Assembly: GCA_964413735.1 (NCBI GenBank)
Contig: CAYPSS010000001.1
Span: 56,237-120,236 of the forward strand
From: an uncultured Gammaproteobacteria bacterium
GTDB taxonomy: Bacteria > Patescibacteriota > Patescibacteriia > UBA11705
Reading direction: 5' to 3'
DNA length: 64,000 nucleotides
Shown here: positions 13,088 through 63,773 of the stretch, piece after piece
Position numbering within the stretch: the first letter of the stretch is position 1
How the letters are laid out: each line of letters begins with the position of its first letter
Notes under the pieces: model-generated
Seen by the model: the letters and a program-made list of their open reading frames with translations, nothing else
What the model was told of the DNA's origin: nothing
The model's database searches: none
Program-made: the position numbers and the translations under genes

Positions 13088-13303
13088 ATGATTAAAAAAG
13101 TAATAAGCAAGAAAGTGCTAAGCGAGATAAGTAAGACAAGTGAGACAAGTAAAACGAGTGAAACGAGTATTAAAAGGGGTTAGGGATAAGGGATTAGGGG
13201 GGCTAGAAAATGAGGGAATAAAAATAAAAACCATATTCTCACTCTGAACTTGTTTCAGAGTCTGTGCTATGATCTGGACAAATAAAAAGATCTATTACAG
13301 TGT
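13088..13303. repeat. Modular intergenic repeat block (gtaag-rich block, G-tract block, 29-bp palindromic element)
   Basis: gtaagacaagtg/aagcaagaaagt motifs at 13100-13170 also found at 21962-22035 and 24150-24215; G4-type motif ggggttagggataagggattaggggggg at 13176-13202; ttctcactctgaacttgtttcagagtctg at 13237-13265 identical to 24428-24456. Confidence 0.7.
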
Positions 13304-20913: not shown

Positions 20914-20976
20914 ATTTTTATTTTTATTTCATTTTAATTATATCATAAATAATGGAATTCAACCAAATAACCAATT

Positions 20977-21033
20977 GACAAATCAATTAAATCAGTTAAA
21001 CTTTTAATGGTTCCTTTCACTTTCAGGGAGGGG
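20977..21033 (+). promoter_or_regulatory. Putative sigma70-type promoter (TTGACA-16nt-TAAACT) and strong Shine-Dalgarno AGGGAGGGG for the Nudix gene
   Basis: TTGACA at 20977-20982; SD at 21025-21033 immediately upstream of ATG 21035; leader shares ttaatggttcc...cagggaggg with the leader of gene 28068. Confidence 0.4.
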
Positions 21034-21034
21034 C

Positions 21035-21757
21035 ATGGGAAAAGAAAGCCATACTAACAATTCGCCATCAGTTTGTTCAACTTTGGTTGTTGATTGTGTG
21101 GTTACCAGTCTCTATCGCACAATACCATTGATTGGATTAATTACGCGGAAAAAGTATCCGTATGCAGATCGTTATTGTTTGCCGGGCGGACATTTTGATG
21201 CCGGAGTCTGGAATCAGGAAAAACAATGTTTTGAAATGAACTCACAACATGGTTGTGACTTAACGATTGAACAAACCGCTTCCCGAGAATTGGCTGAAGA
21301 GGCAATGCTTTGTGTATCTCCGGATGAATGGCAATTTCTAATGTTTTTGACTGCTCCCAATCGTGATCCGCGACCTGATATGCGACGCTTATCGGCCGTT
21401 TTCTGGAAAGATTTCAGCTCATTTTCCTCTTTACTTCTTGGTAAGGCCAACAGTGACGCTGCCTCGTGGACAATAACAAACTTAATGTCATTGACGGAAG
21501 AAGTGATGGGCTTTGATCATTGGCTGGTAATTCAAAAGTTGCAAAAGCATTGGGCGGAAACAGCAAGAACTTGGTCTTTTGATGGTTTCAAATATGTTCA
21601 TAAATGCAATGAATTATTCCATGGTTTTGGTGAAATTTGGCGACATCCCAATGCCAATGAAGCTTACCATAGCCATAGTCATAATACTGTTTTACAACCA
21701 ATTAAATTCTGCCCCGGTTGTGGTAAAAGTTTGACACTGCCAATCATTAACTTTTAA
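21035..21757 (+). CDS. NUDIX-family hydrolase-like protein with C-terminal CxxC extension
   Basis: 240 aa; Nudix-box-like segment LPGGHFDAG...TIEQTASRELAEEAML; GC content visibly higher than surroundings; strong SD. Confidence 0.5.
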   Translation: MGKESHTNNSPSVCSTLVVDCVVTSLYRTIPLIGLITRKKYPYADRYCLPGGHFDAGVWNQEKQCFEMNSQHGCDLTIEQTASRELAEEAMLCVSPDEWQFLMFLTAPNRDPRPDMRRLSAVFWKDFSSFSSLLLGKANSDAASWTITNLMSLTEEVMGFDHWLVIQKLQKHWAETARTWSFDGFKYVHKCNELFHGFGEIWRHPNANEAYHSHSHNTVLQPIKFCPGCGKSLTLPIINF

Positions 21758-21764
21758 TAAGCGA

Positions 21765-21791
21765 AAATCTTACCAACGGTAAGATTTTTTT
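21765..21791 (+). terminator. Rho-independent terminator after Nudix gene
   Basis: aaatcttacc aacg ggtaagattt hairpin followed by TTTTTTT. Confidence 0.6.
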
Positions 21792-21799
21792 AATCCAAG

Positions 21800-22040
21800 T
21801 AATTTTCCTCATGTCATTGCAAGGATTTCCGTGAAACAGTCCGCCCCACCTGTCATTGCGAGGAGCGAAGCGACGAAGCAATCTAAAGGACTAGTGGGCA
21901 AAGCTTTCCCTTAGATTGCCACGAGATTTCAATTCTTGAAATCTATCGCAATGACAGGAAAAACTTACCACTTTCCCACTTGTCTTACTTACCACTTACA
22001 ACTTTCTTGCTTAATACTTTCTTGCTTACTGCTTGCTAAA
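21800..22040. repeat. Modular intergenic palindromic repeat block (inverted copy of block at 24140-24420)
   Basis: cctgtcattgcgagg...tcgcaatgacagg and gcaatctaaagg...ccttagattgcc internal palindromes; 21826-21867 is the reverse complement of 24325-24362; gtaag-block at 21962-22035 is the inverse of 24150-24215. Confidence 0.7.
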
Positions 22041-22043
22041 AAA

Positions 22044-23228
22044 TCAAAGATACTTTCGGTTTCTCAATTTATCCGGTAAATAAGTTTGCTTGGAGCTATC
22101 CTCCTTTGGTGTATATTTATATCCTTTACTATAACCTAATTCCTTCATTAATTTAGTTGGGGCATTTCGCAAATGAAGCGGGACCGGCAAATTGCCATAT
22201 TGCTCGACATCACGACCGGCTTTTTCAATCGCTTCATAAGCAGTAATATCTTTTTTGGAATTTGATAAATAAATCACACATTGTGTCAAATGCACGCCAC
22301 ACTCAGGCATCCCCAATTTATGACAAGCATCAAAAACCGCATTGGCTAAAAGTAAAGCGGTGTTATTTGCCAATCCAATATCTTCCGAGGCAAAACGCAC
22401 TAAGCGCCTCGCAATATATAGAGGATCTTCACCGGCTTTGAGCATTCGCGCCAACCAATAAACCGCCCCATTGGCATCGCCACCACGCATTGACTTATGC
22501 AAAGCGGAAATTATATTATAATGTTCTTCCCCGTTTTTATCATACATTAAAGCGGTTTTTTGTAATATTGTTTTGACGGTTTCAGCCGTAATTTTATTAC
22601 TGTGTTGCGCACATAATTCCAAAGTATTTAGAGCGATACGCGCGTCACCATTAGACAAAGACGCCAAAAGCTCTTTGGTTTTTTTATCAATTTTAATTTT
22701 TTGAGCCCCCAGCCCGCTGACTTCATCATGCAAAGCACGATCAATAATTTTTATTAAATCCTCCGGCTCCAACTTATTCAAAACAACGATACGAGAACGG
22801 GAAAGAACCGCTGAATTAACTTCAAATGATGGATTTTCCGTTGTCGCGCCAATTAAAATCAATAGCCCTTGTTCCACAAAAGGTAGCAGTGCATCTTGTT
22901 GCGCCTTGCTCCAACGATGAATTTCATCAACAAATAAAATGGTTTTGATTTTAAGTCGACTGCTTTGTTTGGCTCGTTCCACGACGGCCAGCAAATCTTT
23001 TTTTCCACTGGAGACGGCACTTAATTGCACAAATTCCGAATTGGTTTGCTGAGCAATAATTCTCGCCAAAGTGGTTTTCCCGGTTCCGGGTGGCCCCCAC
23101 AAAATCATCGAAGGAATATTATCTTCTAAAATCGCTTGACGCAAAAAAGACTTAGGGCCAATAATTTGTTCTTGGCCAAAAAACTCCTCTAATTTTGTTG
23201 GACGTAAACGATCCGCTAATGGTGGCAT
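22044..23228 (-). CDS. rarA: Replication-associated recombination protein A (AAA+ ATPase RarA/MgsA)
   Basis: 394 aa; [19 protein letters not shown] Walker A, VDEIHRW Walker B, conserved C-terminal RarA helical domain motifs. Confidence 0.85.
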
Positions 23229-23328
23229 ATTTGTTATTTAGGGGGCTAATCTTGTTGCTAATATCTTAGCACTAATTTTTTTAAATTCAAAAAAATCCTC
23301 TGTTAGAGGATTTCGAATTAAAGATTAA

Positions 23329-23520
23329 TCACGAACAACGACGCAAACGTGGGTTGGCCTTGGGAAATTGAGGCGAATCAGCGCGTCCCCGAGAATGACG
23401 TGGAATTTCCTTCTTATCCGATTCATCATCCGTATCCACCACTTGTTGGGAAAAATGCTTGACCACCACTTCACTTTGTTCCTCGGGCAACAACTTGTAT
23501 TCAGGACGCTTCCAAAACAT
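23329..23520 (-). CDS. Small acidic/basic hypothetical protein (63 aa) with strong SD and own terminator
   Basis: AAGAGGAGGG SD 4 nt upstream of ATG; terminator hairpin aatcctct gtta gaggatt plus T-run at 23290-23320; GC-richer than surroundings. Confidence 0.4.
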   Translation of the reverse strand: MFWKRPEYKLLPEEQSEVVVKHFSQQVVDTDDESDKKEIPRHSRGRADSPQFPKANPRLRRCS

Positions 23521-23554
23521 CAGCCCTCCTCTTTAAAGGGAATAGACTATTATG

Positions 23555-24130
23555 CTATTGATCAATCATTCCTTTTTTCAAGCAATTATTATAATAACAG
23601 TAATCGAAAATATCACGAGAAATCGGAAAAGCGGCAAACAAAATCGCCAACAAGAAGATATGGCTAAACACAAAATCACAAGCACCTAGAAAATTCATTG
23701 ATTCACTTAAGATCATATCAGCCAAAAATGCCAGCCCGAAAATGAAAACTACTTGAATAACAACAAGGGGCAAAACAATTGAATCATTTTTCAAAATCAC
23801 CACCTCATCTTTCATGCTGGAAGAACTAAAAAGCCATTTTTGGGTGTCATACCACCTGGCCCAAATCAAGACAATGGCAATAATCGCAAAAATTGGGAAC
23901 TTTGGCCCCAAATAATAATAATCTGACATTAAATAACCAATCATAACAATCGCTGTCACAACGGTAACACCAAATTGAATCATGGGGTAAAAAGCCCGTT
24001 TGCCTTTTCGCCAACGATAATATTGATAAGAAAAAATGCCCATCAGTAATCCTAAAAAAATATTTAACAAAATCAATAAAATTGGCATTTCGCACCTCAC
24101 TTTTGTAAAGAACCAAAATAAAATTATCAT
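23555..24130 (-). CDS. Multi-TM membrane protein, hypothetical (paralog of 24543..25202)
   Basis: 191 aa; shares YYYLGPKFPIFAIIAIVLIWARWYD-type block with the downstream paralog. Confidence 0.45.
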   Translation of the reverse strand: MIILFWFFTKVRCEMPILLILLNIFLGLLMGIFSYQYYRWRKGKRAFYPMIQFGVTVVTAIVMIGYLMSDYYYLGPKFPIFAIIAIVLIWARWYDTQKWLFSSSSMKDEVVILKNDSIVLPLVVIQVVFIFGLAFLADMILSESMNFLGACDFVFSHIFLLAILFAAFPISRDIFDYCYYNNCLKKGMIDQ

Positions 24131-24139
24131 ATCAAATAT

Positions 24140-24460
24140 TGATTGTCAATAAAGTGGGTAAGGGAGTAAGCAAGAAAGTTGTAAGTAGTAAGTAAGACAA
24201 GTGTGACGAGTAAGAAAGTAAAAAGTTTTTCCTGTTATTACGAGAGGTTTCACTTTGTGAAACCTCGTGGCAATCTAAAAGAAGTCTTTCCCAAAATTAT
24301 TTTAGATTGCCACGTCGTTCCGTTTCACGGAACTCCTCGCAATGACAGGTGGGGTGGACTGTTTCACAGAACTCCTCACAACGATCCTCTTTGTCTACAA
24401 AACGAGGCGAGCAAACAGGACGTAATTTTCTCACTCTGAACTTGTTTCAGAGTCTGAGTT
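24140..24460. repeat. Modular intergenic repeat block (gtaag-rich block, palindromic block, 29-bp element)
   Basis: Reverse-complement copies of motifs at 21800-22040; ttctcactctgaacttgtttcagagtctg at 24428-24456 identical to 13237-13265. Confidence 0.7.
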
Positions 24461-24542
24461 AAAAATATACAAAACCACGAATGTACGAATTATCGAACTT
24501 TGAATATAAAAAAACCTCGACCTTGTCGAAGTTTGAAATTAT

Positions 24543-25202
24543 CTATGGGAAGTTCGGCTCATGCTTTTTCTCCTGCAAGTGTTTCTCCAATTTTTGTTGT
24601 GCTAAAAGGAAAACGCGCCATTCAAAAATATTACGCGACAGATCAGGGAACATCATAGCAATGGCCATTGAAAGGGTCGCAAAAGCAATAACAAAGTCAA
24701 TGCTTTTCAGAATACTATCAAACGGATAATCAAATTTTACCCAAACATTATAAACAATCACATTAACCATGGTCCACAGAATAAGAGCAAAACCAATCCG
24801 TAAGAAAATCTTTGTTTTACTCAGGAACAAAAACTCCAACTGCTGACGATCTTTTTCATTTTCAATAATAACTTGATTATTAACCACGGTCATTTTTTTA
24901 TTCAACCAAACCAGACTTTCATAGCGTCTAAGATGAATAAAAATTAAAGCAATCAAAACAGTAAAAATCGACCTTGGGCCAAGATACAAATAATCGGAAT
25001 GAAAATATTCGAAACATAAAAAAGCCGTTATGCAAACAATCTGAACAAACACTGCATCAAACAAGGTTTTTTCACCCTTTTGGTCATGTTTTTTTTTCAA
25101 AGCCGAAGATACAACAATGCCAATCGAAAGAAGAATCACCATACCTAAACGCAAAAGAACCTGATAATTGTCCATCATTGCCCCCTGGTTGTAAAGGAAC
25201 AA
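24543..25202 (-). CDS. Multi-TM membrane protein, hypothetical (paralog of 23555..24130)
   Basis: 219 aa; DYLYLGPRSIFTVLIALIFIHLRRYE block. Confidence 0.45.
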   Translation of the reverse strand: MFLYNQGAMMDNYQVLLRLGMVILLSIGIVVSSALKKKHDQKGEKTLFDAVFVQIVCITAFLCFEYFHSDYLYLGPRSIFTVLIALIFIHLRRYESLVWLNKKMTVVNNQVIIENEKDRQQLEFLFLSKTKIFLRIGFALILWTMVNVIVYNVWVKFDYPFDSILKSIDFVIAFATLSMAIAMMFPDLSRNIFEWRVFLLAQQKLEKHLQEKKHEPNFP

Positions 25203-25220
25203 ATAAGATTAACATTAATC

Positions 25221-26504
25221 TTATTTCTTGTCAATAGGGATTACCACTTCTTTAGACCTAAAAACCAGCCAGCTCAATGAAAAAAACAACCACCACAAAA
25301 TACTTAAATCATTTTTAAAATACGGCACATCAACAATTCCATGCGTAATAATTACCATCAAGCAACAAATGAGCAATATATATAATGATCGATTATCAGA
25401 ATTTTTCACTTTCCAATAATTGATTAAATATTTGAGAATTAAGAATCCCACAATCAATAACCCCAAAATCCCAATTTCCGTCCAAAAATTCAAAATAAAG
25501 TTATGAGGATATAAATATATTTCCACCACTCCCTTAGCATGATGAAATGGCGCAATGGCCGTTTGATAACCGGAAATTCCCCCACCCCAAATTGGAGAAA
25601 CTTTTAACATTTGAATGGTTTCTTGCCACATTACCAAACGCAAGTTCCCGGAAAAATCCTGGAACAATGCTTTTTCCTGAACCAAACTACCAATGGTCGG
25701 AAAAGCAAAAACCCCCACCATAGCAAGAAAAAGAAAAATCAAAGTGATGATTCGCAATTTTTTGATTAACAAACCAAACAACAAACCACCAATTCCCAGA
25801 GCAACGATCGCCCCCTCACTTTGCGCAAAAAGGATGGCCAGAAAACCGCAAATGGCCACGATTAAGTAATAAATAATTTGGGACCAATATTTTCCCGCTG
25901 ATTTTTCCCAGAGCAAATAAGCTTGGCCGAGAAATAACAAAACCAAAGGCGCCAGATACAAGCCAATGGCATTGGGATAACCATAAACACTGGTCACGCG
26001 ACGCGTTTGTGCTACCGCCCAAAATTCATTGGGAATAAATGCCCCGGTAAACTTTTGATAAATTGCCAAAGCCGATATTCCTAAAATCGATAGCCCTAAA
26101 AATTTCAGGATCAATTGCCAATCATTTCTTGTTTTAATTATATTAATAAAAATAATGAAAAACATAATCGGCTCAATAAAGTAGGCTTTCCAGACTCCCA
26201 GGGCCGCTCGTTTATCAGGTGAATAAAAAATGGCTAAGCTGACAATAATTAACAACAGCAAAATCAACCATTTATAATTTGAATAAGTTAAACGTTGTTT
26301 AGATATTATTTTTTTAATAATAAAAAGAAAAAAGGCCACTAAAATCAATGCTTCAATCAAAGTAAACGGAACATTAAAAATTAAAAATTTAATTCGGTAA
26401 AACGGCAACACCAAAAGAAAAATCGCCAAACCCAAAGCCGGTCGGCGCCAAAACAAAACCCCAAACAGCAAGCTAACAAAAACCAAAATCATTAAATCAA
26501 TCAT
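25221..26504 (-). CDS. O-antigen ligase/polymerase-like (Wzy_C family) membrane protein
   Basis: 427 aa, 10-12 TM helices with large periplasmic loop, layout typical of O-antigen ligase family; 4-bp overlap with flippase gene. Confidence 0.5.
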   Translation of the reverse strand: MIDLMILVFVSLLFGVLFWRRPALGLAIFLLVLPFYRIKFLIFNVPFTLIEALILVAFFLFIIKKIISKQRLTYSNYKWLILLLLIIVSLAIFYSPDKRAALGVWKAYFIEPIMFFIIFINIIKTRNDWQLILKFLGLSILGISALAIYQKFTGAFIPNEFWAVAQTRRVTSVYGYPNAIGLYLAPLVLLFLGQAYLLWEKSAGKYWSQIIYYLIVAICGFLAILFAQSEGAIVALGIGGLLFGLLIKKLRIITLIFLFLAMVGVFAFPTIGSLVQEKALFQDFSGNLRLVMWQETIQMLKVSPIWGGGISGYQTAIAPFHHAKGVVEIYLYPHNFILNFWTEIGILGLLIVGFLILKYLINYWKVKNSDNRSLYILLICCLMVIITHGIVDVPYFKNDLSILWWLFFSLSWLVFRSKEVVIPIDKK

Positions 26505-27931
26505 AAATTATCAATGTTTGGCTTAGATAATTCCTTCCAAAAATCTTTTTTTATGGCTCCAAGTAAATATAGCATTCCAAAATATGTAATCGAAGCCATT
26601 AATAAAACAAATAAAATATGCCAATTGGGCAACAATAAAATTATCCCGACCATTACTAAGCCGGCCAAACAATATTTACCCAAAGCAATAAGACTGGGAA
26701 TAAATTTAGTTTCCCGATAAACCACCACAAAAGTCCAAACCATAATTACTACCTCAGAAAAAACCGTCATCCACGCCGCGCCCCAAAAACCGAACTTGGG
26801 AATAAAAATAAAATATCCAATCAAAGTAATAATACTGGTTGTTAAATAACCCCACATCATTTGTCGTTGCTTGTGCACGGCCAAAACTGCATAGCCAAAT
26901 AAACTGGTGACAAAAATCGCTCCCGAAGCCAGAATTAAAACTTTCAAAATTTCACCGGACATGGCAAAATCTCTGCCCGCCACAAAAACCATTACTTTTT
27001 GGGCCACCAAAAAAGTGCCAAAAACAATCGGCACCGCAAAAAGCATCAGAGAATCAAAGGCCAGTTGCATTAACTTTTTCATTTCCGTTAAATTTTTTTG
27101 CAAAAAATGATTGGTTAAATGAGGCAACACAATCCCCATATAAACGGCTGGCATCATGGTCAAAATATCCACGACCCGATAAGTCGCACCATAAAGCCCG
27201 ACATCCGCTTGCGGTCTAACAAGTGACAAAATAATGGTATCCATTTTCAAATAAATCAAATTAAAACCAATGGACAAAGCAATCGGCCAACTACGTTTGG
27301 CCACCGCCTTCCAAATATCAAAGTCAAACGCCCAACCAAATTCAATGTATTTGCGTGCATAATAGAAAACCACAATCAAATTCACCAAACTGCCAAAAGA
27401 AATGGTCAATAAAATATAAAATAATGACCCGCCAAGCAAGGCAATTACCGCTGTTAAAATTACCAGCACCAACCGGCCCAAAACCTCAGCAATCGTTACT
27501 TCAAACATTTTTAATTTTTTCTGGAAAACCCCGGTCAATACTTGAATAATAGTAATAAAGTAAAAAGAAAATGATGTGGCCAAAACACCCATCTTCACTT
27601 CCGGAGGATAAGGGAAAAACAAAACCACCAAAGGCGCCAACCCAATAAATAGAAACGAAGAGATTACGCGCAAAGTTAAAATATTTTTCAACAATCTCGG
27701 TTCATCTTGTTTTTCATCACTGATCATTTGCACGGTGGTGAGACTCAAACCAAAATCCGCCATAATGCCAAAAAACTGCAAAAAGGCAATTGCGGTAGTG
27801 TAATAACCAAATCCGGTTTGACCCAAATATCGGGTCATTATCGATACCGCCACCAACCCCAGAACTAAACTGATCATTTTGCCGGCAATTTGAATCAAAG
27901 AGTTTTTGGTAATTTTACTGTTAATTGACAT
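26501..27931 (-). CDS. Polysaccharide biosynthesis protein / oligosaccharide flippase (MOP superfamily, Wzx-like)
   Basis: 476 aa, about 12-14 TM helices, N-terminus typical of Polysacc_synt family (SLIQIAGKMISLVLGLVAVSIMTRYLG). Confidence 0.65.
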   Translation of the reverse strand: MSINSKITKNSLIQIAGKMISLVLGLVAVSIMTRYLGQTGFGYYTTAIAFLQFFGIMADFGLSLTTVQMISDEKQDEPRLLKNILTLRVISSFLFIGLAPLVVLFFPYPPEVKMGVLATSFSFYFITIIQVLTGVFQKKLKMFEVTIAEVLGRLVLVILTAVIALLGGSLFYILLTISFGSLVNLIVVFYYARKYIEFGWAFDFDIWKAVAKRSWPIALSIGFNLIYLKMDTIILSLVRPQADVGLYGATYRVVDILTMMPAVYMGIVLPHLTNHFLQKNLTEMKKLMQLAFDSLMLFAVPIVFGTFLVAQKVMVFVAGRDFAMSGEILKVLILASGAIFVTSLFGYAVLAVHKQRQMMWGYLTTSIITLIGYFIFIPKFGFWGAAWMTVFSEVVIMVWTFVVVYRETKFIPSLIALGKYCLAGLVMVGIILLLPNWHILFVLLMASITYFGMLYLLGAIKKDFWKELSKPNIDNL

Positions 27932-28003
27932 AAAATATATTTTGTTTGAAGTTTAATTACTTAAATTTTACCAATTTTTACCAAAAAAAACAAACTTCTG
28001 GGG

Positions 28004-28063
28004 TTGACAATTAAATATAATTGTACTACAATATACTGTTAATGGTTCCCCAAACAGGGAGGG
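28004..28063 (+). promoter_or_regulatory. Canonical sigma70-type promoter TTGACA-17nt-TACAAT plus strong SD AGGGAGGG
   Basis: TTGACA 28004-28009, TACAAT 28027-28032, SD 28056-28063, ATG 28068. Confidence 0.5.
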
Positions 28064-28067
28064 TGCG

Positions 28068-28508
28068 ATGCTGAAGTATATGATGGCAATGGTATTGGGA
28101 TATTTGATCCACAAGCATGGTGATCAGGTTACCAAGTATTGGAACAATCCGGAAGAGCTGGAAAAGTACTTTGAAAAGATCTTGAATGATGAAAAGCTGT
28201 CGGCTTTGAAGGAACGATTTGTGAAGGCTTTCAAGCAGGGAACGGATGCGCTGGAAGCGGAATTCAAGAAGTTCTTGGATGAGATGGCAGCCAAGGCCAC
28301 GGAAACTCCGCCGGAGGAGCCCGCTCCGCCTCCGGCTCCGGTGGTCATGCCCACGGAAAACTGCCAGAAGTGTGGGCAAGAGAATGCCATCGGCTCGCCC
28401 GCTTGTTCCAAGTGCGGTGGTCCGGTGACGTCGATTGCCGAATTGAAGGACATGTTGGAAGAGATCAAGAAGATTCCGCGCAAGCGTGGGCGGAAGCCTC
28501 CCAAGTAA
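28068..28508 (+). CDS. Small GC-rich protein: N-terminal hydrophobic helix, helical region, Pro-rich linker, CxxC-x11-CxxC zinc ribbon, basic AT-hook-like tail (RKRGRKPPK)
   Basis: 146 aa; coding region far GC-richer than genome; strong promoter, SD and terminator; ORFs on opposite strand are GC artefacts. Confidence 0.55.
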   Translation: MLKYMMAMVLGYLIHKHGDQVTKYWNNPEELEKYFEKILNDEKLSALKERFVKAFKQGTDALEAEFKKFLDEMAAKATETPPEEPAPPPAPVVMPTENCQKCGQENAIGSPACSKCGGPVTSIAELKDMLEEIKKIPRKRGRKPPK

Positions 28509-28566
28509 CGAAAAACGGTACGCAATGCGTACCGCTTTTTTGATATAGAAGATTACTCAAAACATT
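28476..28566. repeat. Direct repeat copy A (about 88 bp; 3' end of gene 28068..28508 plus terminator)
   Basis: About 85-90 percent identical to 30202-30292. Confidence 0.75.
28511..28541. terminator. Bidirectional rho-independent terminator (perfect 9-bp stem cggtacgca/tgcgtaccg flanked by A-run and T-run)
   Basis: gaaaaacggtacgcaatgcgtaccgcttttttg; a near-identical copy occurs at 30236-30267. Confidence 0.65.
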
Positions 28567-28601
28567 TAATAATAACTTTTTTTCTTTACTTTTTATTTTT
28601 A

Positions 28602-29999: not shown

Positions 30000-30201
30000 A
30001 ATGTTTTTAATTAAATTATTAACTTGATTAAATCATATCACAAGTTATATTCAATATAAAATAAATTTTAAACTTTCTTTTTATGTTTTTGGTAATCACT
30101 TAGAAAAACACAATAAAATACTTAATATGGTTTAGTTAACTATTTACGCTATGCCATATTAAGAAAAAGGCGTCTATATTGCTTGTGTATAATTTAGTTA
30201 T

Positions 30202-30292
30202 CCCGCACAAGCGTGGGCGGAAGAGTCCCAAGTAACGAAAAACGGTACGCAACGCGTACCGCTTTTTTAATAGAAGAGCTTATTCAAAATGT
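30202..30292. repeat. Direct repeat copy B (degenerate duplicate of gene 28068..28508 3' end and terminator)
   Basis: Retains coding remnant ...PHKRGRKSPK-stop and the cggtacgcaacgcgtaccg hairpin. Confidence 0.75.
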
Positions 30293-30708
30293 TCTATAGT
30301 AATTTTATTCAAATCACCATTAATAATAATCGGCTTCACTGCTTCAATTTCAGTTTTGCAATAAGGCATTTCAGGAATGGGGTTTAACATAAATATTTTT
30401 TGATTCAGAACATGGGCAAAGCCAATTTCCATTAGAGTATTTCCACCAACATAATTTTTTATCCCATTCTTATCAAAATTTAATACCAGCACCGCATCAG
30501 CCCCTTGCATCATTCTCCAAAATTCACGGATAGCGTCCATGTTATTCTTTTGGTGAAGTTTAATAGTTTCAATTTCCTCCTCGGTTTTTCCCACCATTGT
30601 TTTGTGCAAGTCCGTCAAAAAGGCCTCGTGTCCCAATTCCCGAAGTTTTTCGCGGTACTCCAGCATTTGATCTGTAAATTGCATTGATCCAATTATTCCT
30701 ATTCGCAT
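30280..30708 (-). CDS. Nucleoside 2-deoxyribosyltransferase-like protein (PF05014-like Rossmann fold)
   Basis: 142 aa; MRIGIIGSM N-terminus and ADAVLVLNFDKNG...GGNTLMEIGFAHVLNQKIFML matching the D-x-GT-x-E-hGYA catalytic-glutamate block of the NDT family. Confidence 0.45.
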   Translation of the reverse strand: MRIGIIGSMQFTDQMLEYREKLRELGHEAFLTDLHKTMVGKTEEEIETIKLHQKNNMDAIREFWRMMQGADAVLVLNFDKNGIKNYVGGNTLMEIGFAHVLNQKIFMLNPIPEMPYCKTEIEAVKPIIINGDLNKITIEHFE

Positions 30709-40757: not shown

Positions 40758-40771
40758 ATTATAAATAAAAA

Positions 40772-40797
40772 GACCGTCGCTTTCCGACGGTTTTTTT
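40772..40797 (+). terminator. Rho-independent terminator after dnaN
   Basis: accgtcg ctttc cgacggt hairpin plus TTTTTTT. Confidence 0.6.
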
Positions 40798-40808: not shown

Positions 40809-41621
40809 TTACAAAGTTTTTACGTATTTTCTATAAGCAATAATCAGTAAAATTGGAAAAATTGTATAACAGGCAATTACATATGAAATCAAGATAAAAG
40901 GATTTATATCTGCCAGTCCTTTATAATAAATAGCTGAAATGGTCATTATAGGAAGCTTCCAAAAATCATTCGTTCCATAGGGATAAACACTAATTATTGT
41001 CATAAGTAAGGATATTTTAATAAAATAAAGAATCCACCCAATATAATCTTTCTGATTTTCTGTTTCTTTGAATAAAAACAACTTGTATGTTTGCTTTTTG
41101 TTGATTAAGTTATTCCAGATAAATAATCCGGGCAAAACAAGGCAAAATCCACTAATAATCACTATTGAAGTGTAAATTACGTTTAAAGATTTGTTCTTTA
41201 CCCAATGATTCTTTGGTTCCCAATATTCATGAGTTTTGAGGCTGTTTGGTTTGTGTAATCGCAATAAATACAAAATAATAATGTTAATTATAATAACAAC
41301 AAATGGTCCGGAAACGCTAAGAGCAAGATATTTTCCATTGATTGTATAGATTAAACCAAAATAACCTTCGGCCATTATTTTAACATAAGAACCATTAAAA
41401 GGGTTTAACCCAAGAATTAGGGGGGTACCTGCAATTGATGTTTGTATTTTTGTAAAACCTTCACAAATAACAATTTCCTTAACAGGCACATTGTAAAGTT
41501 TCATAATTGCAAAATGTCCCATTTCATGAATGAATGAAGTTGTATACAAAAACACAGAAGTGAAAATAATTAACTGCAAGGTTAAAACAAATAATTCCGT
41601 TATCTTGTTGCTTTTTCCCAT
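40809..41621 (-). CDS. Membrane metalloprotease-like protein with HExxH motif (M50/site-2-protease-like)
   Basis: 270 aa; FIHEMGHFAIM HExxH within a TM helix; multiple TM segments. Confidence 0.4.
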   Translation of the reverse strand: MGKSNKITELFVLTLQLIIFTSVFLYTTSFIHEMGHFAIMKLYNVPVKEIVICEGFTKIQTSIAGTPLILGLNPFNGSYVKIMAEGYFGLIYTINGKYLALSVSGPFVVIIINIIILYLLRLHKPNSLKTHEYWEPKNHWVKNKSLNVIYTSIVIISGFCLVLPGLFIWNNLINKKQTYKLFLFKETENQKDYIGWILYFIKISLLMTIISVYPYGTNDFWKLPIMTISAIYYKGLADINPFILISYVIACYTIFPILLIIAYRKYVKTL

Positions 41622-41738
41622 TTTTTCTCCTTGTTAAGGAACGAAGAACTATTGATTTTATTATAATTTGAGATTTTTGTCAATATTGAGAATGATTATT
41701 TAAAACAAAAGAGCAGTGAAATAATTCACTGCTCTTTA

Positions 41739-42146
41739 TGGTGCCGCGCCCGCCCCGCACCCGAAGTGGTGCGGGGAGCCGGAATCTCACGCGCTCGCAA
41801 CGACCTTGCTCGCTTCAAAAGGGGGATTCCTCCCCCTTTTGGGAACCCCTATCATTACAGATGGGAAACTCCCGTTTCCCATACCCTTCCCGTTCGATTC
41901 CGGATTAATAAAAAAACAATCCTTCTTGCGAAGAATTGTTTTTGGTGCCGCGCGTGCCCCGTACCCGAAGTGGTGCGGGGAGCCGGAATCTCACGCGCTC
42001 GCAACGACCTTGCTCGCTTCAAAAGGGGGATTCCTCCCCCTTTTGGGAACCCCTATCATTACAGATGGGAAACTCCCGTTTCCCATACCCTTCCCGTTCG
42101 ATTCCGGATTAATAAAAAAACAATCCTTCTTGCGAAGAATTGTTTT
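41739..42146. repeat. Two tandem 204-bp repeats, each beginning with a copy of the tRNA-Leu 3' end (CGCGGCACCA / AGCCGGAATC) interrupted by a GC-rich hairpin
   Basis: Units 41739-41942 and 41943-42146, about 97 percent identical, abutting the 3' end of tRNA-Leu(UAA); each contains a terminator-like hairpin plus T-run and a T-arm-like GTTCGATTCC box; ORFs 41766..42185 and 41806..42201 are repeat artefacts. Confidence 0.8.
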
Positions 42147-42234
42147 TGGTGCCGCGAGCCGGAATCGAACCGGCATGGAGTATAAGTCCGCTGGATTTTA
42201 AGTCCAGTGCGTCTACCAGTTCCGCCATCGCGGC
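42147..42234 (-). tRNA. tRNA-Leu (anticodon UAA), type II with long variable arm, CCA encoded
   Basis: GCCGCGATGGCGGAACTGGTAGACGCACTGGACTTAAAATCCAGCGGACTTATACTCCATGCCGGTTCGATTCCGGCTCGCGGCACCA; cloverleaf folds with anticodon loop CTTAAAA. Confidence 0.85.
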
Positions 42235-42237
42235 ACG

Positions 42238-42471
42238 TTAGAAGGACTTTAAAAACTCTTTTCCACAACAAGATTTCAAGTATTTCTCATGAGTTCTAGC
42301 TTCTTTCCTTGTTTCAAAGTTTTTAGTATAAATAACAACGAATGGTATGTATGGCCTTGTTGTTTTTTCTTTACCTGAATTATGTTGATAAAAACGTTTT
42401 TCAAGATTATTGGTTAAACCCACATAAATATAATTTTTTATTGTGCTTTTAATTGCATAAACATTATACAT
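42238..42471 (-). CDS. Small GIY-YIG nuclease family protein (YhbQ/UPF0213-like)
   Basis: 77 aa from MYNVYAIKS...; motif YIYVGLTNNLEKRFYQHNSG...R...E conserved; the ORF-track call (42238..42555) extends upstream through a tRNA-derived repeat and is probably too long. Confidence 0.55.
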   Translation of the reverse strand: MYNVYAIKSTIKNYIYVGLTNNLEKRFYQHNSGKEKTTRPYIPFVVIYTKNFETRKEARTHEKYLKSCCGKEFLKSF

Positions 42472-42480
42472 ATATAGATT

Positions 42481-42577
42481 TATCCAGTGCGCCTGCCTGC
42501 CGGCCCGCTCCGCCCGCGTAGCGAGGCGAGCAGGCAGATCTACCAGTTCCGCCATCGCGGCACGTTAGAAGGACTTT
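42481..42577. repeat. Partial duplicate of tRNA-Leu 5' half (acceptor plus D arm) interrupted by a 46-nt GC-rich hairpin, plus 14 nt of tRNA 5' flank
   Basis: tctaccagttccgccatcgcggcacgttagaaggactttt at 42538-42577 matches 42219-42258; insertion cctgcctgccggcccgctccgcccgcgtagcgaggcgagcaggcag; continues with GCGCACTGGA then diverges. Confidence 0.75.
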
Positions 42578-61332: not shown

Positions 61333-61370
61333 TTTAAAATAAAAAATAGCGTTGGTTCAACGCTGTTTTT

Positions 61371-61826
61371 TTATAACGGTAAATAGTCACGATTTGTGCC
61401 GTTGAATTCTTGGAAATGATGTTCACAACAATCAAATTCATGAACTACGCCCCAAACATTGATCAAGGCACGATGAGTGGTTTTCCCAGGACAGTCTTTC
61501 ACTCGACAACCTTGATTTGGGTCAATCGGAGTTTTAATACGGGCGAAGTGATGCCACATAAAGGGGCCAAAAAGGTTATTGGCCTTGATATCAAAGCGCC
61601 AATCGTCATCTACTCTTAACTGATCCGCCGAGAAAAATTCAATGATCTTATCATGGTATTGTGCTCCATACAAATGCACAATTTCACATCTGGGGAAATT
61701 GACACCAAAGAATTCTTTACCACCACGAATTTCGTATTTTTTTACTTGGCCTTGTTTTCTATTAAACAAATTATTGGGATCAATAACCGTCACAATACTT
61801 TTAAGCGGGATGCTTCCCTGATCCAT
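61371..61826 (-). CDS. Hypothetical protein with Cys/His-rich C-terminal region (possible metal-binding)
   Basis: 151 aa; ...CRVKDCPGKTTHRALINVWGVVHEFDCCEHHFQEF. Confidence 0.4.
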   Translation of the reverse strand: MDQGSIPLKSIVTVIDPNNLFNRKQGQVKKYEIRGGKEFFGVNFPRCEIVHLYGAQYHDKIIEFFSADQLRVDDDWRFDIKANNLFGPFMWHHFARIKTPIDPNQGCRVKDCPGKTTHRALINVWGVVHEFDCCEHHFQEFNGTNRDYLPL

Positions 61827-61877
61827 ATGACCCTCAATAAAAAGGCTTTGTTATATTAAATAAAATATCTTTTTTTG

Positions 61878-63395
61878 TCAATCAATATTTTTGGTGCGAT
61901 ATTGAAGAGCTTCAGCTAAATGAGATAATAAAATGTTATTTTGATTATCAAAGTCAGCAATGGTTCGAGCAATTTTTAATACGCGGTGTTGTGATCTGGC
62001 CGATAGGTGAAGTTTGGCGGTGGCATTTTTTAACAATTCCAAACTGTCATCAGATAAACGACAAAACTGGGATATTTCTTCGGGTCGCATTTCCGCATTG
62101 AATTTTATTTTTTTGTCCGTGAAACGCTGATTTTGAATTTCTTGAACTTTAATTATTCGTTCACGAATATCTTTGGATGTTTCTGCTTTTGTTTCGTTAT
62201 AAAGTTTTTCAAATTTAACTCTTGGGACCTCCACATGCAAATCAATCCGATCAAGAATTGGGCCGGAAATTTTTTTTCGATATTTCAAAATTTGTCCTAT
62301 AGAACAAGTACAGGTTTGTTCCGGATCAGAGGCATAACCGCAAGGACAGGGGTTTTGACTGGCCACCAGAGTAAAGCGGGCCGGGAAACTCAATGTTCCT
62401 TGAGCCCGAGAAATGGATACCACCCCATCTTCCAGCGGTTGCCGGAGATTTTCCAATACCATTCTTGGAAACTCGGGTAATTCATCTAAAAACAATACTC
62501 CACGATGAGCCAAACTGATTTCTCCGGGACGAGGAAACTTCCCTCCTCCCACCAGCGCCACGCCGGAACTGGTATGATGCGGGGAACGAAACGGTCTGGT
62601 ATTAATAATTGGTTTATCATTTGGCAATAATCCGGCAATGGAATATATTTTGGTGATTTCCAAAATTTCTTGATTGGAAAGAGGAGGTAAAATCCCAGGT
62701 AGCGCGCGAGCCATCAATGTTTTCCCTGACCCGGGTGGACCGTTCATTAATATATTATGTGCGCCGGCCGCTGACAATTCCAAGGCGCGTTTTACATGTT
62801 CTTGGCCTTTGATAAAGGACATGTCCACTTCATAAGAGGCAAATGCCGGAGAAATAATTCCGCCGGTTATCAACGGAGAAATTATATTTTCTTGATTTAA
62901 ATGAGCATAAAGCTCGTGCAAGCTATTAATTGGAAAAATATTGATTCCTTCTACTAAAGAAGCTTCGCTTTTATTTTTTTCTGGAATAAAAATATTTTTA
63001 TATCCCAAATCTCGAGCGGCAATGGTGGCGGGAAGAATGCCACTGGTTTTTCGTACTTGACCGTCAAAAGCCAATTCGCCGATAAAAATTGAATCACCTA
63101 GATCTTGTTTTAATTGCTTGGTTGTTAATAAAATGGAAACAGCAATAGCCATATCATACAGTGATCCTTCTTTGCGAACATTGGCCGGTGCTAAGTTAAC
63201 GGTTAATTTTTGACGCGGAAAAATAAAACCACTGTTTTTAATGGCAAATTTAACACGTTCTTTGGCTTCTTGAATTGCCGTATCTGGTAATCCGACAATA
63301 ATAAAAGCCGGCAGTTCACTGGAAGTATCGGTTTCAATTTCCACCATTTGCGATTCCAGGCCGGTTAAAACAATTGATTTTACTTTGGCAAGCAT
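61878..63395 (-). CDS. comM: YifB/ComM family Mg-chelatase-like AAA+ ATPase
   Basis: 505 aa; N-terminal Lon-protease-like domain MLAKVKSIVLTGLESQMVEIE, Walker A GPPGSGKT, Mg-chelatase ChlI-type motifs. Confidence 0.85.
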   Translation of the reverse strand: MLAKVKSIVLTGLESQMVEIETDTSSELPAFIIVGLPDTAIQEAKERVKFAIKNSGFIFPRQKLTVNLAPANVRKEGSLYDMAIAVSILLTTKQLKQDLGDSIFIGELAFDGQVRKTSGILPATIAARDLGYKNIFIPEKNKSEASLVEGINIFPINSLHELYAHLNQENIISPLITGGIISPAFASYEVDMSFIKGQEHVKRALELSAAGAHNILMNGPPGSGKTLMARALPGILPPLSNQEILEITKIYSIAGLLPNDKPIINTRPFRSPHHTSSGVALVGGGKFPRPGEISLAHRGVLFLDELPEFPRMVLENLRQPLEDGVVSISRAQGTLSFPARFTLVASQNPCPCGYASDPEQTCTCSIGQILKYRKKISGPILDRIDLHVEVPRVKFEKLYNETKAETSKDIRERIIKVQEIQNQRFTDKKIKFNAEMRPEEISQFCRLSDDSLELLKNATAKLHLSARSQHRVLKIARTIADFDNQNNILLSHLAEALQYRTKNID

Positions 63396-63491
63396 ATATT
63401 ACATTTTACCATGACTTAAGACAAATAAAAAAATATTGACAAATTGCTTAGTTTTTTTTAAGATGATCACAGTTCTTTTAGAGGGTAATCA

Positions 63492-63725
63492 ATGATCTGC
63501 CCACAATGTCAAAAAGGAAATATCAGAATTTTGGGTGATAATGTTTGTTCTTGCGGTTGTTCACGTTTTATTTGTGATTGTTGTTTATCTGTTTTTGTTG
63601 GTTCAAGAACCGGTTTTGTCAGTGATGGTAAAGTGGTTAAAGATCCGATTGTGGATTTAATGATTAATAATGTTGATCAGTTAAAAAGATTGCAAAAATT
63701 GGTTTTGGATTTGCCTATAGTTTAA
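63492..63725 (+). CDS. Small Cys-rich hypothetical protein
   Basis: 77 aa; MICPQCQKG...CSCGCSRFICDCC; no SD; uncertain. Confidence 0.3.
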   Translation: MICPQCQKGNIRILGDNVCSCGCSRFICDCCLSVFVGSRTGFVSDGKVVKDPIVDLMINNVDQLKRLQKLVLDLPIV

Positions 63726-63773
63726 ATTTGTAATTACAAAAAGCGTTTATTAGAACGCTTTTTTCTTTTATAT

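Follow-up and report, generated by a model that had tools for sequence, protein, structure and literature searches.

Phage morons are reportedly autonomous promoter-gene-terminator units that lie between other genes and are often of deviant composition. We describe here units of comparable build, each led by a Shine-Dalgarno (SD) sequence, in a 64,000-nucleotide stretch of contig CAYPSS010000001.1 (hereinafter the window; 35.7% GC), starting from three genes that code for a divergent Nudix protein, a 63-residue orphan and a 146-residue zinc-ribbon protein. Like the morons, the window units come with their own promoter and intrinsic terminator, sit between backbone genes, often on the opposite strand, and are replaced as blocks, with one of them being of deviant composition. 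Unlike the morons, they are lodged among cellular genes with neither a prophage context nor phage matches, and their composition is mostly host-like.

A second point of reference is the SD-blind translation of the Bacteroidia: the Flavobacteriales keep their anti-SD sequestered, and rpsU regulates its own expression by way of its SD (McNutt 2023, PMC9976891; Jha 2021, PMC7797042; Naeem 2026, PMC13000453). The window genome resembles these bacteria in being nearly SD-free with A-rich leaders before its core genes, and in having a few genes with strong conserved SDs, among which is the bS21 gene in the relatives of the window. It differs from them in its phylum, the Patescibacteria, in holding several SD-led genes per 64 kb, in these genes being accessory orphans rather than rpsU, and in a U at position -1 of its core genes in place of the upstream-adenine pattern of the Bacteroidia.

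The taxonomic setting is provided by rarA, whose best matches in the GTDB species genomes are from Patescibacteria. The closest are in the related loci L009 (74% identity; deposited as an uncultured Gammaproteobacteria bacterium) and L010 (73%; Falkowbacteria UBA11705), while the next-best GTDB matches are mostly labelled Moranbacteria or Patescibacteria. Going by these matches, the source organism is a bacterium of the Patescibacteria (candidate phyla radiation, CPR), kin of Falkowbacteria and Moranbacteria. In this organism, we lean towards seeing the cassettes as a native class of accessory genes, which are autonomous, SD-led and probably exchanged between strains as units, in a CPR genome that otherwise appears to be SD-independent.

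SD strength, promoters and terminators of the cassettes

The three open reading frames (ORFs) lie at 21035-21757 on the plus strand (Nudix), 23329-23520 on the minus strand (63-aa) and 28068-28508 on the plus strand (zinc-ribbon). A preliminary description of the sequence had ascribed unusually strong SDs to them, and these are indeed present 3-5 nt from the start codons: AGGGAGGGG at 21025-21033, AAGAGGAGGG at 23524-23533 (minus strand) and AGGGAGGG at 28056-28063. We computed pairing energies for the duplex of each upstream region with an assumed canonical anti-SD, using random 20-nt windows as the background. The 63-aa ORF reaches -12.5 kcal/mol and the Nudix and zinc-ribbon genes -11.6 kcal/mol each. 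They are followed by three genes with -8.5, -6.3 and -6.1 kcal/mol, and the other 54 genes stand at -3.3 kcal/mol or weaker, the median gene having a value of +0.4 kcal/mol. Energies of -11 kcal/mol or lower are seen in 0.22% of the random windows; three genes are observed at that level as against about 0.13 expected (P for at least 3 of 60 = 3.5e-4). The string GGGAGGG occurs just twice in the 128 kb of two-strand sequence, namely in the Nudix and zinc-ribbon leaders.

The complementary claim that core genes lack an SD is borne out by inspection of the regions upstream of rarA, EF-P, YebC, ComM, RnpA, YidD and others; across the approximately 60 ORFs of the window the purine-rich motif is nearly absent 5' of the start codons. 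In the zinc-ribbon and 63-aa genes the SD cores are unchanged between diverged alleles while adjacent bases differ. This conservation suggests that the SDs are probably functional, and their invariance between diverged alleles implies that they are used in this host. The frameshift SD of prfB was also sought as a stand-in for a functioning anti-SD; neither the window nor the fetched loci contain a prfB gene.

Promoters were called from consensus matches at -35 and -10, allowing 16-18 nt between the two hexamers and searching up to 150 nt upstream. Near-consensus sigma-70-type promoters were recovered for two of the three genes, as had been noted: TTGACA-17-TACAAT before the zinc-ribbon gene (28004-28032, plus strand; 11 of 12 matches; kept in the related loci L002 and L003) and TTGACA-16-TAAACT before the Nudix gene (20975-21002, plus strand; 10 of 12 matches; hexamers kept in L007 and L008). 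The 63-aa gene, which begins 34 nt past the stop codon of an upstream gene for a 191-aa membrane protein, lacks a strong promoter of its own, while having an SD and a terminator. Promoters with at least 10 of 12 matches are found near only six genes, five of which are among those with the six strongest SDs (hypergeometric P = 6e-6). The SD-less YebC gene also has a sigma-70-like promoter and TTGACA is overall no commoner than expected by chance; hence, sigma-70-like promoters are no mark of foreignness.

Each of the three genes also has its own terminator, two being detected by a terminator scan and the Nudix hairpin by reading the sequence. The zinc-ribbon terminator (28516-28541, plus strand; 28516-28534 in the scan) has an 8-bp stem with six GC pairs and is kept in L002 and L003. 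That of the 63-aa gene (23292-23314, minus strand) has a 10-bp stem followed by a T run in the scan, and is invariant in four strains. The Nudix terminator, AAAATCTTACC-AAC-GGTAAGATTTT followed by a T run (approximately 21764-21791, plus strand), was read by eye; its hairpin has only 2-3 GC pairs, which places it under the GC-pair threshold of the scan, and it is retained in L007 and L008 although the neighboring sequence diverges.

While the three genes thus share a common build, the class turned out to be larger, with three more cassettes having been overlooked. The fourth (40809-41683, minus strand; ORF 40809-41621) codes for a 270-aa M50-like membrane protein, with the promoter TTGACA-17-TAAAAT, the SD AAGGAG at -8.5 kcal/mol and a terminator just downstream of the gene (about 40760-40795, minus strand). 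The fifth (61371-61881, minus strand; ORF 61371-61826) codes for a 151-aa Cys/His-rich orphan behind TTGACA-17-TAATAT and a weak SD, GAGGG, at -6.1 kcal/mol; its terminator likewise lies just downstream (about 61340-61365, minus strand). The sixth (63436-63765, plus strand; ORF 63492-63725) codes for a 77-aa Cys-rich orphan with TTGACA-17-TAAGAT, the weak SD AGAGGG at -6.3 kcal/mol and a terminator. In all three, the -10 hexamer is 26-35 nt from the ATG. Since their GC content is low or average, it is by expression signals, and not by GC content, that the class is defined. Seen together, the initial observation of three SD-led cassettes was largely correct, being confirmed in part.

Cassette proteins, composition and exchange between strains

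The preliminary description had further characterized the three genes as visibly higher in GC. Measured against the 54 other genes of the window (GC 0.360 ± 0.036; GC at third codon positions, GC3, 0.337 ± 0.053), this holds strongly for the zinc-ribbon gene (GC 0.519, z = +4.5; GC3 0.667, z = +6.3) and moderately for the 63-aa gene (GC 0.484, z = +3.5; GC3 0.453, z = +2.2), but the Nudix gene is host-like (GC 0.407, z = +1.3; GC3 0.340, z = +0.1). The zinc-ribbon gene additionally shows the most atypical synonymous codon choice in the window (z = -4.2): its lysines are encoded by AAG in 20 of 20 cases, as against 20% genome-wide, and TTA is never used. These values, together with the GC of the 63-aa gene, are what would be expected if the cassettes had been recently acquired from an SD-using donor of higher GC and had brought their signals along. 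The host-like GC3 of the Nudix gene and the low or average GC of the three further cassettes speak against such an origin.

We accordingly looked at the proteins themselves. The zinc-ribbon gene (28068-28508) encodes an orphan that begins with helices and continues through a proline-rich linker into a putative CxxC-N10-CxxC zinc ribbon and a basic tail. The four cysteines are invariant in the three available sequences, and the Pfam model Zn_Ribbon_1 matches with 19.1 bits, under the 25-bit cut-off. An AT-hook had also been ascribed to the protein; the R-G-R-P core is not kept, with the three alleles reading RGRKP, RGRKN and RARKP, and as judged from these the region is a basic tail and not a conserved AT-hook. 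Among 5.8 billion proteins it has two relatives only, which are 95% and 85% identical. An exhaustive HMMER search over 1.84 billion cluster representatives returned, besides these relatives, only generic zinc-ribbon-repeat or low-complexity matches, and the GTDB species genomes, IMG/VR, the GenBank phages and the PLSDB plasmids yielded no matches. The ratio of nonsynonymous to synonymous substitution rates (dN/dS) is 0.19-0.26. A stop-free antisense frame at this locus was considered as a possible antisense gene and rejected, since it is explained by the avoidance of TTA, CTA and TCA codons.

The 63-aa protein has only three homologues in the same protein set, all of them 63 aa long and all encoded upstream of rarA, with dN/dS of 0.13-0.19 in the diverged pairs. 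Its leader occupies 23521-23540 on the minus strand, with the AAGGAGG before the gene being identical in four strains despite differing upstream sequence. In L004-L006 a gene for a 79-aa protein is found between the membrane-protein and 63-aa genes, which is missing in the window (23521-23554).

The 240-aa product of the Nudix gene (21035-21757) is recognized by the Pfam NUDIX model (PF00293) with 27.5 bits against a gathering cut-off of 21.1 bits, and has a C-terminal CxxC zinc-ribbon-like end. In common with the superfamily, it has the REL-x-EE catalytic core (RELAEEAML in the window, RELQEEVGL in the other allele). It departs from the canonical GX5EX7REUXEEXGU box in its longer spacing, the region N-terminal of REL being lengthened, and in the box glycine, which is Met in the window allele and Gly in the other; the C-terminal half, of about 110 aa and with the CxxC at its end, is additional. 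A word-indexed search of the 5.8 billion proteins yielded two close homologues, and PHROGs phage-family models gave only a generic Nudix match. Homologues with 33-34% identity are encoded syntenically in L009 and L010, in the same slot between rarA and orf82, although rarA itself is only 73-74% identical in these relatives. The host-like GC3 and the shared slot point to inheritance or exchange within the clade, and not to import.

In none of these searches did a donor lineage emerge: for the three proteins, the protein, genome, phage and plasmid collections contain close relatives only, and neither a donor nor a distant homologue came up in any collection searched. The PADLOC defence models have no match for the three proteins, and no integrase, transposase or other mobility gene is present near the cassettes. 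AlphaFold2 models were too poor for the inference of function (pLDDT, the predicted local distance difference test, of 31, and of 56 for the zinc-ribbon protein). By sequence comparison, the three proteins are near-orphans under purifying selection.

The alleles of the cassettes have histories that differ from those of their surroundings. Relative to L002, the flank of the zinc-ribbon cassette (a flippase gene) is 84% identical, whereas the promoter, the leader and the first 360 nt of the coding sequence are 98% identical and the last 81 nt 80%. Relative to L003 the situation is inverted, with 98.5% identity in the flank and 88-89% in the cassette. Similarly, when the Nudix gene is compared to L007 and L008, the flank is 98-99% identical while the proteins share 57% amino-acid identity (proportion of synonymous differences, pS, 0.72; nonsynonymous divergence, dN, 0.37), and the similarity resumes at the terminator. 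Cassette divergence is thus decoupled from that of the flanks in both cases, which indicates block replacement by recombination within the clade. A unit that carries all of its own signals would be replaceable as a block by recombination between strains.

Such mosaic allele histories can also be accommodated by import from outside, as can the partial second copy of the zinc-ribbon 3' end 1.7 kb away and the enrichment of the SD-led ORFs of relatives for locus-specific genes (see below). Nevertheless, the invariance of the SD between diverged alleles implies its use in this host, and there are neither mobility genes nor a traceable donor. Of the proposal of a recent acquisition from a foreign donor, what stands is the foreign-looking codon usage of the zinc-ribbon gene. 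For the cassettes as a group we consider import unlikely; for the zinc-ribbon gene only, a recent import from a compositionally different donor is plausible.

The second copy just mentioned is part of a 110-nt direct repeat, the two copies of which are 84% identical. Copy 1 (28473-28582, plus strand) comprises the last 36 nt of the zinc-ribbon gene, the terminator and about 45 nt beyond; copy 2 (30200-30309, plus strand) is an in-frame remnant of the last 11 codons of the gene with a copy of the terminator, and closes a variable cargo slot. In the window, this slot is occupied by two genes of low GC, one for a 152-aa orphan and the other for a methyltransferase that weakly matches the PADLOC model mad2. 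In L002 (877-1935) a SoFic-like Fic gene (PADLOC 1e-38) replaces these two genes, and is followed by the same conserved stretch of about 100 nt and then by the start of repeat copy 2. The slot between the direct repeats looks like a hotspot for defence-type cargo. It is comparable to genomic islands and defence hotspots in having different cargo in two strains between the 110-nt repeats, but differs from them in being devoid of an integrase or recombinase and in its repeats being the 3' end of the neighboring gene.

Initiation contexts and the cassette leaders

The SD-less genes have a distinct initiation region of their own. The 47 SD-less ATG genes of the window have an A-rich leader (45-64% A) with few G (2-13%), and in 40 of them (85%) a U is found at position -1, as against one of six SD-led genes (P = 0.0015). 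We compared this with a wider set of 80 related loci with 1303 ORFs (L009-L088), in which a U at -1 precedes 66% of the SD-less and 40% of the SD-led ORFs (P = 1.7e-4). The resulting UAUG, which follows a leader rich in A and poor in G, may be a start-site context specific to the clade and might extend the codon-anticodon pairing.

In the same 80 loci, SD-like motifs precede about 7% of the ORFs. These SD-led ORFs are shorter than the others (189 vs 260 aa) and slightly richer in GC3 (+0.034, P = 8e-4). No homologue in any other locus was found for 65% of them, as against 38% of the other ORFs (P = 1e-6); among ORFs of up to 250 aa the corresponding values are 72% and 52%. The division can be followed in L009 and L010, which have in common an SD-less backbone of flippase, Wzy, rarA, orf82, an NTP-transferase and a substrate-binding protein. 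The same slots in these loci hold SD-led accessory genes, among them those for the Nudix homologue, a stand-alone RNA polymerase alpha C-terminal domain protein, an S1-domain protein and several small orphans.

Five otherwise SD-poor, Moranbacteria-like loci contain a bS21-like gene with a conserved GGAGG 6-7 nt upstream (L013 16859-17113; L014 18293-18544; L019 17639-17890; L023 16376-16627; L028 15919-16152). Nearly all best solved-structure matches of its product are bS21 chains, with the Pfam match being under the cut-off; the window itself has no rpsU. The conserved GGAGG suggests a functional anti-SD in the clade.

The parallel to the autoregulated rpsU of Flavobacteriales, along with the rarity of strong SDs in an SD-poor genome, raises the possibility of a specialised-translation regulon. 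Here, the anti-SD would normally be sequestered by bS21, bS18 and bS6 as in the Bacteroidia, and it would fall chiefly to ribosomes whose anti-SD is free, for instance bS21-poor ones, to translate SD-led mRNAs, making translation of the cassettes conditional. Yet in Flavobacteriales usually only rpsU shows excess SD pairing, bS21 is often absent from Parcubacteria (PMC9297842), and the window holds neither rpsU nor a 16S gene; we therefore judge this to be rather improbable. Extended by analogy to SD-poor Patescibacteria in general, it would posit two initiation modes, with core genes using an A-rich leader and U(-1)AUG, and circulating accessory orphans and rpsU having strong SDs that are read only when the anti-SD is exposed (e.g. 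on bS21-depleted ribosomes). The cassettes would then be a conditional regulon swapped between strains, a conjecture to which we likewise give little credence.

Turning to the leaders themselves, it had been observed that those of the Nudix and zinc-ribbon genes share two sequence blocks. Both leaders contain exact copies of TTAATGGTTCC and CAGGGAGGG, but the gap between these blocks is 9 nt in the Nudix and 5 nt in the zinc-ribbon leader and not the 6-11 nt reported. The Nudix leader (21004-21034, plus strand) consists of TTAATGGTTCC at 21004-21014, a pyrimidine-rich spacer and the SD CAGGGAGGGG at 21024-21033; the zinc-ribbon leader (28039-28067, plus strand) has TTAATGGTTCC at 28039-28049 and the SD CAGGGAGGG at 28055-28063. 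The match extends upstream as TA(A/T)ACT(T/G)TTAATGGTTCC. An exact 11-mer is shared in 21 of 1431 pairs of upstream regions (1.5%), mostly as A/T-only words, and a comparably G/C-containing one in about five of the 1431, with the consequence that the leader match exceeds chance to a moderate degree only. Across the three zinc-ribbon alleles the stretch of 25 nt that runs from TTAATGG to GGGAGGG does not change, while the bases on both sides vary in L003, which suggests a functional constraint on the leader. A common regulatory element in the Nudix and zinc-ribbon leaders is therefore possible.

Two other readings of the motif were discarded. As a widespread element it fails in the JGI metagenomes, in which the 16 matches are attributable to chance and never stand before a start codon in AT-rich surroundings. 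The ATG within TTAATGGTTCC would open upstream ORFs of 16 and 10 codons over the SD; this ATG is missing in the divergent Nudix allele and in the other cassettes.

We also considered whether the pyrimidine tract 5' of the SD (GGUUCCUUU, UUCCC, CCCUUU, UCCUU) might pair with it in a regulatory hairpin, acting as a thermometer-like switch or one operated by a trans-acting factor, with TTAATGGTTCC as the conserved 5' arm. As in the fourU and ROSE RNA thermometers, a U/C tract 5-9 nt upstream in the window leaders can pair with the SD. SD-covering hairpins are predicted in all three leaders (9 bp in the Nudix leader), but the folding z-scores are close to 0 and the Nudix hairpin is no better than that of shuffled sequence. 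Likewise, complementarity between leader and own SD is higher here than in the other genes (P = 0.003), but the signal is gone against composition-preserving shuffles (P = 0.29) and is accounted for by composition. The variable stretch between the shared blocks would make up the loop and a C-to-U change in L002 preserves the pairing; however, the divergent Nudix allele, in which the SD is weakened to GGAGAAAAGG, lacks the motif, as do the JGI metagenomes. Rfam has no match to the leaders even at a permissive threshold, which, together with the want of statistical support for structure, sets them apart from the known thermometers. An SD-sequestering hairpin was accordingly rejected as a candidate, and we regard such a switch as very improbable.

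We hence return to the cassettes as native, exchangeable accessory genes. Under this reading, each unit would comprise a sigma-70-type promoter of its own, some 20-28 nt of SD-bearing leader, and a small ORF restricted to the lineage and followed by an intrinsic terminator. There would be two kinds of initiation region, an A-rich, G-poor one with U(-1) and no SD in the core genes, and one with SD pairing but without U(-1) in the cassettes. The SD may recruit ribosomes independently of an unstructured A/U-rich leader, and this recruitment would be most important for the GC-rich zinc-ribbon and 63-aa genes. The products would be small and fast-evolving, and several of these proteins would have zinc ribbons.

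Several points weigh against this reading. The extreme codon usage of the zinc-ribbon gene is not accounted for by a purely native origin. The SDs of the three further cassettes are weaker (-6 to -8.5 kcal/mol), and the six cassettes were grouped as one class after the data had been seen. The underlying gene set of about 60 ORFs in the window is crude, with starts set by the longest-ORF rule. Neither the window nor the fetched relative loci have a 16S rRNA gene, for which reason the anti-SD used for the pairing energies was assumed to be canonical; according to Tsurumaki et al. (2022, PMC9297842), only 48% of the 16S genes of Parcubacteria were found to contain the motif.

Neighboring features and implications

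A pair of inverted repeats (length about 220 nt, complementarity 75-89%) is found at 21807-22030 and 24160-24384, with a partial copy at 13094-13152. They flank a block consisting of rarA, the 63-aa gene and the gene for the 191-aa membrane protein, and are built of nested palindromes (cattgcgagg...cgcaatgacagg); the contigs of L001 and L004 end inside them. Rfam has no match to these repeats, which could be a MITE-like element (miniature inverted-repeat transposable element) or an invertible segment. Elsewhere in the window, a GC-rich 204-nt tandem repeat at 41735-42156 (2.1 copies, 98% identical) adjoins a tRNA-Leu(taa). Also present are a GIY-YIG gene (42238-42555) and a further tRNA-Leu(taa) (52566-52648). 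The string AAACCATGAAATAAA is common to two genes of the pilin region (14090 and 16913), in both of which it directly precedes the start codon. Among the relatives, composition and signals alternate within an ABC-transporter cluster of L009 (1463-4945): the OmpA-fused binding protein has a GC3 of 0.75 and an SD, the permease a GC3 of 0.35 and no SD, and the ATPase a GC3 of 0.69 and an SD.

The CPR or Patescibacteria comprise a huge uncultured bacterial diversity with reduced ribosomes, in which the start of translation is little understood. The cassettes described here offer a caution for the study of such genomes, in that a foreign origin is not to be deduced from strong expression signals and own terminators taken by themselves. 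The split between an SD-less core and SD-led accessory genes would provide a sequence handle for separating the backbone from accessory genes in metagenome-assembled genomes, and the compact native modules of promoter, ribosome-binding site and terminator are possible parts for CPR genetics. With regard to the biology of these organisms, the split suggests that the anti-SD is retained and might be used selectively, as in the Bacteroidia.

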